This document shows, piece by piece, positions 1 through 6,358 of a DNA stretch of 20,000 nucleotides (within the stretch, counting starts at the first letter, position 1; each line of letters opens with the position of its first letter). The stretch comes from Vicugna vicugna (lineage: Eukaryota). The DNA lies in contig MU058213.1 of NCBI GenBank assembly GCA_013265495.1, positions 4,760,540-4,780,539 of the forward strand. The letters are read 5' to 3'. The notes beneath the pieces are model-generated. The model was given only the letters and a program-made list of their open reading frames with translations. It did no database searches and was not told the DNA's origin. Position numbers and translations under genes: made by a program.

Positions 1-342
1 GTCAGGCTGAGTCCCTGCTGAGTGGGAGGTAGGGGCGTCTGCGGGAGAGGGTGAGCCCAAGCTTGAGGGGAGCTAAGCGGGTCTGGCATGGAGATGGTGA
101 CATGAAAGGAGTGCCCGGCCTTGGCAGACACACTTGGGTTTAGGTGATGCGATTTGTGGTGGGACTTGCCCCCCCCCATGTTGTGACTTCGCTTATCAAC
201 AGTGAGGTTCACGAGGCAGTGAGGGAGGAGAATGTGTGATGGTTGTCCCTGCTCACGGTGGGGCAGAGTCTCCCCTGAAGACTAGGGTCTTGGGTTCGGG
301 GTTTGACCACACGCAGGGTTTGGGGTGAAGTAAGCAAGACCA

Positions 343-523
343 GCAAGTCCCCCGTGAAGCAGCGGCTCATAAAGGCCACCAGCAGAGGTGACAGAGCATT
401 GCACCGACGTGAAGTGGGGTGGGAAAAACAGACCTGGCCCCTCAGAGCACTGAAAGTGAGATCAGTTTCCCTTTTCTCCCTCAAATTAAATCAACTTTGG
501 AAAAGCTGAGGTAGTCAAATCAA
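343..523 (+). repeat. Left arm of exon-flanking inverted repeat (partner 1858-2039)
   Basis: Manual alignment to the reverse complement of 1858-2039 gives 112/159 identities without gaps over 345-503, then one 1-nt gap and about 20 more nt with 3 mismatches. Confidence 0.9.
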
Positions 524-707
524 GGGGAATATGGCCTCTGAGGAGGAAAAGGGGAGAGGCTACAAGGGTCTCAGCCGGTGTCTGTGCGAGGACAGTGGTT
601 GTTGGGGGACAGGCGAGGGAGTGGCCGTCCCTGCGGGTGGCCGAGGTCGAGGTGCAGGGCCACGAGACATCTGTTGCATCTTCACCTCCGCTGTGTTCCT
701 TCTCTAG

Positions 708-920
708 GAGCTCTTACAGGCAAAGCAGGACCTTCAAGATCTGCTCATCACCAAAGAGGAGCAGGAAGACCTCTTGAGAAAGCGAGAGCGTGAACTCACT
801 GCCCTGAAGGGAGCCCTGAAAGAGGAGGTGTCCAGCCACGACCAGGAGATGGACAAGCTGAAGGAACAGTACGACGCGGAGCTGCAGGCCCTGAGGGAGA
901 GCGTGGAGGAGGCCACCAAG
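708..920 (+). CDS. CGNL1: Internal coding exon of cingulin-like protein 1 (paracingulin/JACOP), coiled-coil rod; 71 codons, phase 0-0
   Basis: Acceptor ctgtgttccttctctAG ends at 707 and donor AAG|GTGAGT starts at 921. The 213 nt translate to [87 protein letters not shown] is the cingulin-family motif, and the flanks match CGNL1 as I recall it. No other exon was recognised in the window. Confidence 0.93.
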
Positions 921-927
921 GTGAGTC

Positions 928-950
928 GGGAGGGGTGGGGGAGGGGCGGG
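928..950 (+). promoter_or_regulatory. G-run cluster just downstream of the 5' splice site (candidate hnRNP F/H intronic enhancer / RNA G-quadruplex)
   Basis: GGGaGGGGtGGGGGaGGGGcGGG: five G-tracts with 1-nt loops starting at intron position +8. Confidence 0.55.
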
Positions 951-1857
951 AGCATCTGGCTTGGGTGCAGGGGATGGGCAGGACCACCTCTTCCACACCA
1001 GGGCCAGTTGTTTACCTTCCTCTTCATGACAGAGTGAAACTCAGTTTCACCAGGTCATTGATCCAGACCTTGTTCACAAAGGGTAAGCTCAGCAGTTCTG
1101 CTGTTGACCATTTTAAGTCGATAAACTTAAAGGTTGTTAAGGACACTGGTTAAAAGCTCTTGCACGCGGTGAGTCTTAGAGGCCCAGGAGTGAGCCCCTC
1201 CAGGATTCCTAAAGGTCAGAGGCCTAGAGCTTTGTGTGACTTTGCTAATGGGGCTGGATGGTAGACAGGACCCAGATTTCTGGAATCCTTCACCCTGGCC
1301 TCTGCTTGTTCGTTCTAACTTGTGAAGCCTTTTGTTAGATAATTCAGATGCTTTTCTCAGCAAAATTACAAGAGGGTTAATGGGCTGAATTGCCCAAACC
1401 CTTGCAAGATAATTTTTCTCTTAATTGAATTCTTGGCTCCTACAAATAGATTCTAAATTATGTTGAATCCTTTGGTGTGGGGCTTGGGCTGTTGAAGAAG
1501 AGAAAAGCAGTGTTTTGAAGGGAAAAATGTTTGAAATACCATGCCATCTTTAGGGAAAGAGGGGAATTACAGAGTATAAATTTTTTAGAGTCTCTGCAAT
1601 ATATAGGTTAGAGATGATGAAGAAAGAACTTTCGATATTGTTTGTTTATCCTGTGATGATTACAGTGACAGCTCAGAGCCGGCAGGCCCTCTCTCCCGCA
1701 TGCTCCGCGGTGATTCACTGTTTTTCAATTATGGCATGGTAATTGCAAATGACAAGAAGTGAAAGATGGGTTTGTTTGTTACAACAATAAAATGTCTGGG
1801 AAATAGTCTCTTTGAGGTTATTATAACTGAGACAGTTTTATAAAGAAAAGCCTCTTG

Positions 1858-2039
1858 TTGATTTGCCTATCTTAGCCTTTTTGAGATTTGGTTTAGTTTT
1901 AGGGAGGAAAGTGAAATGGGTGTAATTTTCATTGCTTTGCAGGGACATGTCTGTTTTTTCCATCTAATTTCCCTTCTGTGCAACAGCTTGGCGTCCCTGC
2001 TATTGCCCTTGATGTGCCGTTGCCTCATGGGGGACATGC
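1858..2039 (-). repeat. Right arm of exon-flanking inverted repeat (partner 343-523)
   Basis: Reverse complement gcatgtcccccatgaggcaacggcacatcaaggg...aaaaaacagacatgtccc...gctaagataggcaaatcaa matches left arm gcaagtcccccgtgaagcagcggctcataaaggc...gaaaaacagacctggccc...gctgaggtagtcaaatcaa. Confidence 0.9.
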
Positions 2040-3919
2040 CTACAGGGTACTGAGTAAAGTGATTCTCCTTTGGACCCATCATGTCTTTATCACCTTCAGA
2101 CCTTACGTCAAAGCTTGAGTTAACATGGCTTATTCATTGAAGGGTAGTTGAGAATGGTGTTTGGCGTGTTTATAGTGATTTGACTGTGAGGAAAATTAAA
2201 CTTAGGACATACATGGGATGCAGGATATTTTATAGGAAGCTTTAGGTCCTCTGCTGTCTCATGTTAAAAGCAGGAAAGGGAACCATGGTAGGCAAGAGAG
2301 AGTCTTTGTTACATGAAATTGAGATAATCTGTAAAGACTTAAGCTGCTGCATTTTGAGATCTCCTGACTTTTAAGCATTGCTTCAAATTAAAGAATCACA
2401 AAGACCAGGCACAAACCATCTGCAGGTGAACAGCATGTGACCTTTGTCCCTTTGTCCCTGTCCCTAGAACAGGGTCTGATGCAAAGTCACATCTGTGCAG
2501 TGTCTGATGAAAGTAAAGAGAGAACCAGTTCCTCTCTGAACTGGGTTTTCAGTCCCTGCTGTGTGGTTCCTGTTGGATTTTCTCCAGTGATGATGTGGGA
2601 GGTCTTTTAGGAAGCTCTGCTATTACTCTGTGAATTTCTCTGCCTTGCTTTCGTGTTTCCTTGCAGTTTCTTAAACAGGATCATGATTGTGTTTTTACAC
2701 CTTGTTAGCTATTGCTTCTGAAGGTGTTTGCTGAACAAATGTGACAGAATCATATTTAATGGGAAAAAATTTTGTCACTGTAGTGGACAGATGCTGCCTT
2801 TCTGGTGCATTATTTATTTATGTGGGTATTATATAGTAGAATTTTAGGAGTATTATGTTAACTACTTGGAGGAGAGTGAATTAAGTATAATTTTTTAATT
2901 TAGTAAACAGTTTTTCTTAATTTGTTCACTGGCCTTTAACCTTTTCCTGCCCCAGTGGAAGGACTCACCCAGCATTGTGACTAAAAGCTGACATTTCTTT
3001 AAGGAACTACATTATATTCAAAAGTTTATTTCCTCGGTAAGCCTTAGGAGGCGGCTCAACCTCCTGGCATCAGTTTTTCTAATTTTTGCCACTGCCCCAG
3101 GCCAGAAATCCCTAAAGTGCTGTTTTATCACCGTCAGATAAGAAGTATTTCATCCTGGCCTGAGCTTGAGCCCTAAAAGTTTTAAGTTACTAGAACATTT
3201 GGTGAAAAGTATCAGATTATTTTAAGAATATTTTATAAGTATTCCAAACGGATACTCTGTAAAAATGATTTTTGTAGACCCAGACTGCCTCAGCTTTTTA
3301 AGACCAGATTGATTGCTCCACAGAGGAGAACTGATGAGCCCTGTGATGGGGTGGGGGGGCGGTCCCTGTGCAGCAGAGTGAACGCATGACAGTGGTGGTC
3401 TGCTGCGTTTGGGGAGCTGCTTCAGTTCCCTCCCCACAGAGACACGGCTCCTCACTGTCTGCCTGTCACACATTCTTCTAGAGGACTGTTGGGGACTTTT
3501 ACTCATTATTTCGTAGCATAATTTCCCCCGATGTTACATCCTTTTAATACATGCTCTGCAGTTTTGAAAAGGAAATGTCCTCTTTCTCCTTGGGTTTGTG
3601 GCAGTGGCTGGAATGCATGTGGAGAAATGGACAGTCAACAGGGATGTGAACGACTGTCATCTGGAAGTAAAATGAAGACTGTCCACAGCTATCATCCCTA
3701 CCCTTTCCCGTCTCCCACTTTTGTGCAAAAGAGAGATGTAGATAGTGTTCAGTGTTTTCAGATTTCTCAGCATCGGCTCAGCTCGAATTCCAGCTCCTCC
3801 AAGAACTTCCCTGGTTGCTTCCTGGACCTTACAGTTTCCATGGACCTGGTATTGCTGGAAATTTTGTTCTTGGTTTTATCTTCCCTGTCATGCCAAGGAC
3901 TGTGAGTCATCATTTTCCA

Positions 3920-6229: not shown

Positions 6230-6358
6230 TTTTTTTAAAAGAAAGTTTTGGTGGGGTGTTTGTTTATTTATGTATGTGTTAATGGAGGAGCTGGGGACTG
6301 AACCAGGACCCCCTGCGTGCTAAGCTCCCACTCTTCCACTGAGCTGTACCCTCCTGCC
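6230..6358 (-). mobile_element. tRNA-derived SINE, camelid Vic-1-like
   Basis: Reverse complement gagggtacagctcagtggaagagtgggagcttagcacgcagggggtcctggttcagtccccagctcctccattaa shows an A box, a B box and an A-rich tail. Degenerate TSD tgtaagttcgttct (6216-6229) / tgtaaagtctttct (6359-6372). Confidence 0.8.

Follow-up and report, generated by a model that had tools for sequence, protein, structure and literature searches.

An old inverted duplication around one CGNL1 exon of Vicugna vicugna and its possible part in back-splicing

One exon of CGNL1 in Vicugna vicugna is bracketed, in the two introns which flank it, by the arms of a real inverted duplication of about 181 bp. We consider, with a probability of about one half, that this local duplication is decaying neutrally and is still able to favour back-splicing of the exon. 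In the course of events which we propose, a locus-specific inverted duplication would have arisen near-perfect before the split from several other mammals, and each arm would then have gathered substitutions alone, about as quickly as the intron around it, until the present 74% complementarity was reached. The arms would pair in the pre-mRNA, closing a 1.3-kb loop with the exon and both of its splice sites inside, and their duplex would favour back-splicing into a 213-nt circle, possibly also exon skipping. Such an effect would most likely be a by-product of the duplication and not a structure kept by selection.

The inverted repeat and the exon which it encloses

The window, that is the whole stretch of 20,000 nucleotides which was analysed, lies on a contig of 7.6 Mb in a 2.03-Gb assembly of V. 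vicugna. The features on which the argument turns are the following (positions are those of the window):

343-523, plus strand: arm 1, in the upstream intron, ending 184 nt 5' of the exon
524-1857, plus strand: loop closed by the predicted duplex of arm 1 and arm 2, 1334 nt, including the exon and both splice sites
690-707, plus strand: polypyrimidine tract and acceptor AG (706-707), read directly from the letters
708-920, plus strand: CGNL1 coiled-coil exon, 213 nt or 71 codons, frame-preserving
921-926, plus strand: donor GTGAGT, read directly from the letters
1858-2039, minus strand: arm 2, reverse-complementary to arm 1 and located in the downstream intron, beginning 938 nt 3' of the exon

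A repeat search returned core arms at 343-505 and 1877-2039 (163 nt, 71% complementary, with a spacing of 1371 nt). The gapped local alignment of the arms contains 134 identical columns out of 183 (74% of the ungapped columns) and three gaps of one base, of which two cancel out within 4 nt; its score is 115, to be compared with 17.5 +/- 2.5 and a maximum of 29 for 300 dinucleotide shuffles. No third arm-like site scoring more than 30 against either arm was found in the 20-kb window. A sequence-only reading of this DNA had counted 112 identities out of 159, without any indel, over 345-503, and had described the arms as bracketing exactly one frame-preserving CGNL1 exon. The count was reproduced exactly, the inverted repeat is real, and the arms do enclose that exon and no other.

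The peptide of the exon is 100% identical to proteins source-named cingulin-like protein 1, and it corresponds approximately to residues 726-796 of a 1297-aa protein of that name. When the full-length CGNL1 protein is compared with the window by tblastn, this exon alone is matched, which means that the downstream intron is longer than 19 kb. Six more CGNL1 exon matches were found by the same program in the 20 kb upstream of the window, and the upstream intron begins at about -8250, counted in window positions, and ends at 707. The sizes of the four exons of which 708-920 is the last agree roughly with the 102, 136, 149 and 213 nt given for exons 5-8, which make up the human circCGNL1 hsa_circ_0035435 (PMC10829403); hence our exon is probably, judged by length, the counterpart of human exon 8. 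The first 1000 nucleotides of the window have a GC content of 58%, a GC skew of +0.23 and many runs of G near the exon, while the GC content just downstream is about 40%: the two arms therefore lie in different compositional settings.

Orthologous arms and their divergence

One reading frame is shared by the arms and open in both, at 279-509 on the plus strand (76 codons) for arm 1 and at 1867-2133 on the minus strand (88 codons) for arm 2; on the opposite strand, too, they have an open frame in common. We rejected the hypothesis that the arms code for a protein: they have no period-3 pattern (their differences fall 13, 13 and 17 times on the three codon positions, P=0.69), several frames are open, and a Pfam search returned no family at its cut-off. 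A pN/pS of 0.45 in the shared frame is not backed by the codon-position counts. The same frame is however open in several other mammals and is therefore recorded by gene callers, and the arm translations were used as probes, in the form of a two-sequence profile.

Against 1.84 billion proteins, this profile gave eight matches, six of which are short open-frame translations of arm 1 or of arm 2 on the contigs of other animals. The other two, P0121 (1220 aa, 24 tandem repeats, E=3e-38) and P0128 (3667 aa, E=2e-06), are artefacts whose scores are inflated because a weak match recurs many times: by pairwise BLASTP the former has no match and the latter 29% identity over 45 residues. A second profile search, in a word-indexed collection, added P0131, P0132 and P0133. 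The two very large protein libraries hold nine real arm-like ORF cluster representatives, none of which indicates another locus and seven of which bear the exon or the outer flank of this one. The orthologues of arm 1 (P0123/P0129 and P0132) run through the intron into the exon, out of frame, and those of arm 2 (P0125, P0126/P0130, P0127, P0131 and P0133) include the outer flank (2041-2105 in our sequence); P0122 nearly matches an ORF which bears flank or exon, and only P0124, which begins within the arm, shows no flank. P0113, which matches the exon peptide, has its start within the 3' end of arm 1 and reaches the exon in frame. Since the orthologous ORFs join the arms to the exon or to the flank, both arms have the same placement in several other mammals. 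Going by these open frames, the duplication is old and orthologous and predates the split from those mammals. The most distant copy of arm 1, P0132, has 18 of 44 residues in common with our own arm, which suggests that the split from its lineage is deep.

With the exon peptide as query, the metagenome contigs gave one distant homologue, L037 (3755 nt), where a homologous coiled-coil exon from a distant animal stands at the end of the contig (3556-3750, 63% identity); no arm-like sequence was found in the 3.5 kb upstream of it. The same query had no matches in the genome contigs and in the viral contigs.

Of 50 peptide columns, 22 differ between the arms of our own locus. Twelve of these differences are private to a single arm (six for each arm), six are common to some orthologues of the arm concerned, one was fixed long ago, and the remaining three are ambiguous. 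At 42 of the 50 columns, a residue is common to some orthologue of arm 1 and some orthologue of arm 2. Private changes together with these 42 columns mean that the ancestral repeat was nearly perfect and that the arms have been eroding separately; we concluded, from the peptide alignments, that the arms arose nearly identical and then diverged independently. No column (0 of 50, in an alignment made at the peptide level only) has a residue which is present in both own arms and absent from all orthologues, and no compensatory change is visible there.

In five orthologous open frames the arm 2 peptides are 57% identical to our own (132/230), against 72% (60/83) for the outer flank. For arm 1 and the adjacent intron, the identities are respectively 36/57 and 16/33, 18/44 and 18/46, 11/20 and 21/46. 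The arms are thus not specially conserved, and they diverge about as fast as the neighbouring intron. The stretch of intron just outside arm 2 (2040-2105, in a minus-strand frame) is better conserved at the peptide level than arm 2, and it may be a conserved intronic element.

The sequence-only reading had taken the scarcity of indels between the arms as a sign that their pairing register is constrained. This argument is not supported: three gap columns for 46 substitutions fit neutral decay, with a Poisson P(<=3) of 0.33, a value computed for a neutral ratio of roughly one indel to every ten substitutions. The mismatches which would break pairs number 27 to 31 in about 180 nt and are not clustered, and the longest uninterrupted helix between the arms is 17 bp, when random placement of the mismatches gives a mean of 20.5 by permutation. 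The decay of the arms looks neutral in all these respects.

Predicted pairing of the arms and back-splicing of the exon

The duplex of the two arms in the sense RNA has a predicted energy of -195.4 kcal/mol, against -82 +/- 6 for 100 shuffles. When the region 201-2200 is folded as a whole, the minimum-energy structure contains 154 pairs between arm 1 and arm 2, with a mean pair probability of 0.96. The long-range duplex of the pre-mRNA which had been proposed from the letters is thus recovered by prediction. When the upstream intron (9 kb) is compared with the first 19 kb of the downstream one, no reverse-complementary match other than the arms reaches E<=1e-5; the next-best inverted matches are of 40-56 nt with E>=0.01. 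In silico, the arms pair with each other over the exon in preference to competing partners. The 40 kb around the exon contain three copies of a tRNA-like SINE (one in the window at 6258-6354, the others about 5.8 kb and 12.4 kb upstream, in L038 and L039); they all point the same way, so that there is no inverted SINE pair here. We infer that the duplex would form in vivo and would act on splicing.

Back-splicing is described as being facilitated mainly by RCMs, reverse-complementary matches which pair between the flanking introns (PMC8938519), and such RCMs are reported in a preprint to promote both back-splicing and exon skipping (10.1101/2021.02.28.433292). Our arms resemble the inverted RCM pairs of the Alu type: each intron next to an exon able to circularise has one of two complementary sequences, at most about 0.2-1 kb away from the splice sites, and pairing over the exon is predicted. 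They differ from those pairs in being a unique local duplication, old and only 74% complementary. In mouse Sry, inverted repeats flank the circularised exon: this is likewise a non-SINE, locus-specific inverted duplication around a single exon, but its arms are nearly perfect over many kilobases whereas ours have 181 nt at 74%.

In human, a circle of 213 nt is listed for CGNL1, hsa_circ_0035436, at chr15:57753877-57754090 (PMC7762515; it is also listed in PMC6826865). This means that the human counterpart of the exon 708-920 forms a single-exon circle. This circle and the longer hsa_circ_0035435 come from the same gene and share with our locus an exon of the same length, 213 nt. The human CGNL1 circRNA data are silent on the flanking introns, at least in the titles, abstracts and passages which we found, and pairs of Alu elements flanking the human exon could explain hsa_circ_0035436. 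We also observed that three RNA-seq assemblies (X16-X18, labelled as reproductive-system metagenomes) contain 28-41% of the sampled words of 300-2100, a region of which 88% is intron; this may hint at coverage of retained intron or of pre-mRNA.

The duplication could also be real and old while the duplex either fails to form in vivo or has no importance there, for instance because of co-transcriptional splicing, of helicases, of ADAR editing or of too many mismatches; the splicing and the circRNA of CGNL1 would then not be measurably affected. We hold such an inert relic to be rather unlikely, although several of the results above suit it: the decay looks neutral, the longest helix is no longer than random placement would leave it, and arm 2 is less conserved at the peptide level than its outer flank. 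The splice sites add to this: the donor of the exon is strong and its polypyrimidine tract good, so that linear splicing may dominate. Against an inert relic one can set the only match across the exon, the circularisation of the human 213-nt exon and the size of the predicted duplex, about 150 pairs, when complementary stretches of 30-40 nt are reportedly sufficient for circularisation.

The opposite possibility is that the pairing register is under selection, the arms then forming a conserved regulatory duplex which would control exon skipping or circularisation. What speaks for it above all is the direction of the transitions between the arms. In the local alignment, 19 transitions still allow G:U pairing in the sense RNA and 5 result in A:C; in a MAFFT alignment, 22 are compatible with G:U against 9. 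The corresponding binomial P values are 0.003-0.006, with a composition-based null of 0.50-0.52, and the duplex of the sense RNA exceeds its antisense counterpart in stability by 45 kcal/mol. The presence of the pair of arms in several mammals, and its being the sole complementary match across the exon, go in the same direction.

However the G:U bias has a second possible source. The sense strand is here enriched in G and T, and this drives both inverted arms towards G and U, so that the bias is confounded. A mutational asymmetry is hinted at by the differences in which C stands versus A, which exceed those of A versus C by 8 to 3 despite the fact that both are mismatches. As a local control we took the three SINE copies which lie in these introns and set them against the consensus of 30 copies from the genome: their transitions are in the ratio 7:8 (Fisher P=0.08), or 7:6 outside CpG (P=0.14), so that the difference from the arms is not significant in this small control. 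Transversions, which always break a pair, account for 22 of the 46 differences and are not depleted. Selection on the register is further opposed by the complete lack (0 of 50) of columns where our two arms share a residue absent from the orthologues, by the arms being no better conserved than the flanking intron, by the unclustered mismatches and by an indel count which is the one expected for neutral decay. The 19:5 bias on the sense strand is therefore suggestive, but confounded and not decisive. It could reflect some selection instead of pure neutrality; we nevertheless regard a selected pairing register as improbable.

Copy number of the arms and meaning of the duplication

The genome was scanned with IUPAC consensus patterns common to both arms, with mismatches limited to 2-3. 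In the 2.03 Gb, a pattern of 33 nt allowing at most three mismatches has two matches, which are the two arms (control: 0). A pattern of 29 nt, again with at most three mismatches, finds the two arms and one other site (control: 1), and this other site has just 33 nt in common with the arm. A pattern of 21 nt with at most two mismatches has 63 matches against 13 for its control; 28 of the 61 loci other than the arms were examined, and none of the 28 aligns beyond the 27-57 nt around the seed. As a positive control, a 33-nt pattern made in the same way from two SINE copies of this region, which are 78% identical, has 18,969 matches (against 0 for its own control). By our estimate, one or more of the three patterns would detect a sibling copy of the same age with a probability of about 87%. 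This effectively excludes a family of ten or more such copies.

Other searches gave the same picture within their scope. A covariance model using the sequence only, run over 40 kb, gave the arms 163 and 162 bits and nothing further. The next best score, 9.9 bits (rough E=0.027, model positions 31-146), falls at 5557-5677 of L038 on the minus strand, about 4.4 kb upstream of the window, and is probably due to chance. Over 1-3000, Rfam returned two chance-level matches away from the arms, none of them relevant. When arm 1 was compared with its own genome by a search of the BLAST type, only arm 1 was returned and arm 2 was missed, which means that this method is too insensitive at such a divergence. 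The sequence-only reading had recognised no common dispersed repeat in either arm, and the scans bear it out, since they match the two arms alone where the SINE control reaches 18,969. By these scans the arms are each other's only close relatives, that is, a local inverted duplication, although an extremely old, low-copy family may have been duplicated locally. The tRNA-derived SINEs of this genome could likewise supply complementary matches to introns when they occur in pairs, but they are present in at least 18,969 pattern matches, against two for the CGNL1 arms.

That the arms are two opposed copies, or the termini, of a known interspersed transposon which a repeat library could name is very improbable, in spite of a divergence (26%) within the range of old mammalian repeats and of the ease with which very old low-copy families would escape patterns tolerating two or three mismatches, because the scans match the two arms only, none of the nine arm-like representatives indicates another locus, visual inspection of the arm ends revealed no target-site duplication, and a single element cannot contain an exon already present in the distant vertebrate homologue L037.

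Beside the neutrally decaying duplication which may still favour back-splicing, a bolder reading can be formulated, which we find improbable: the duplication would date from just before the placental radiation and would be a conserved cis-element circularising the 213-nt exon in many mammals (as hsa_circ_0035436 in human), its sense pairing being weakly selected, which would show in the G:U-biased divergence. Were the duplex inert, the repeat would be merely an old intronic duplication of no consequence. Were the bolder reading true, it would be a driver of a conserved circRNA, independent of transposons and roughly 80-100 million years old. Most mammalian circRNAs are attributed to lineage-specific pairs of SINEs, so that those circRNAs which are conserved need another explanation. 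A unique and ancient duplication around an exon which circularises in human would be a clean, testable example of a non-transposon pair across mammals.
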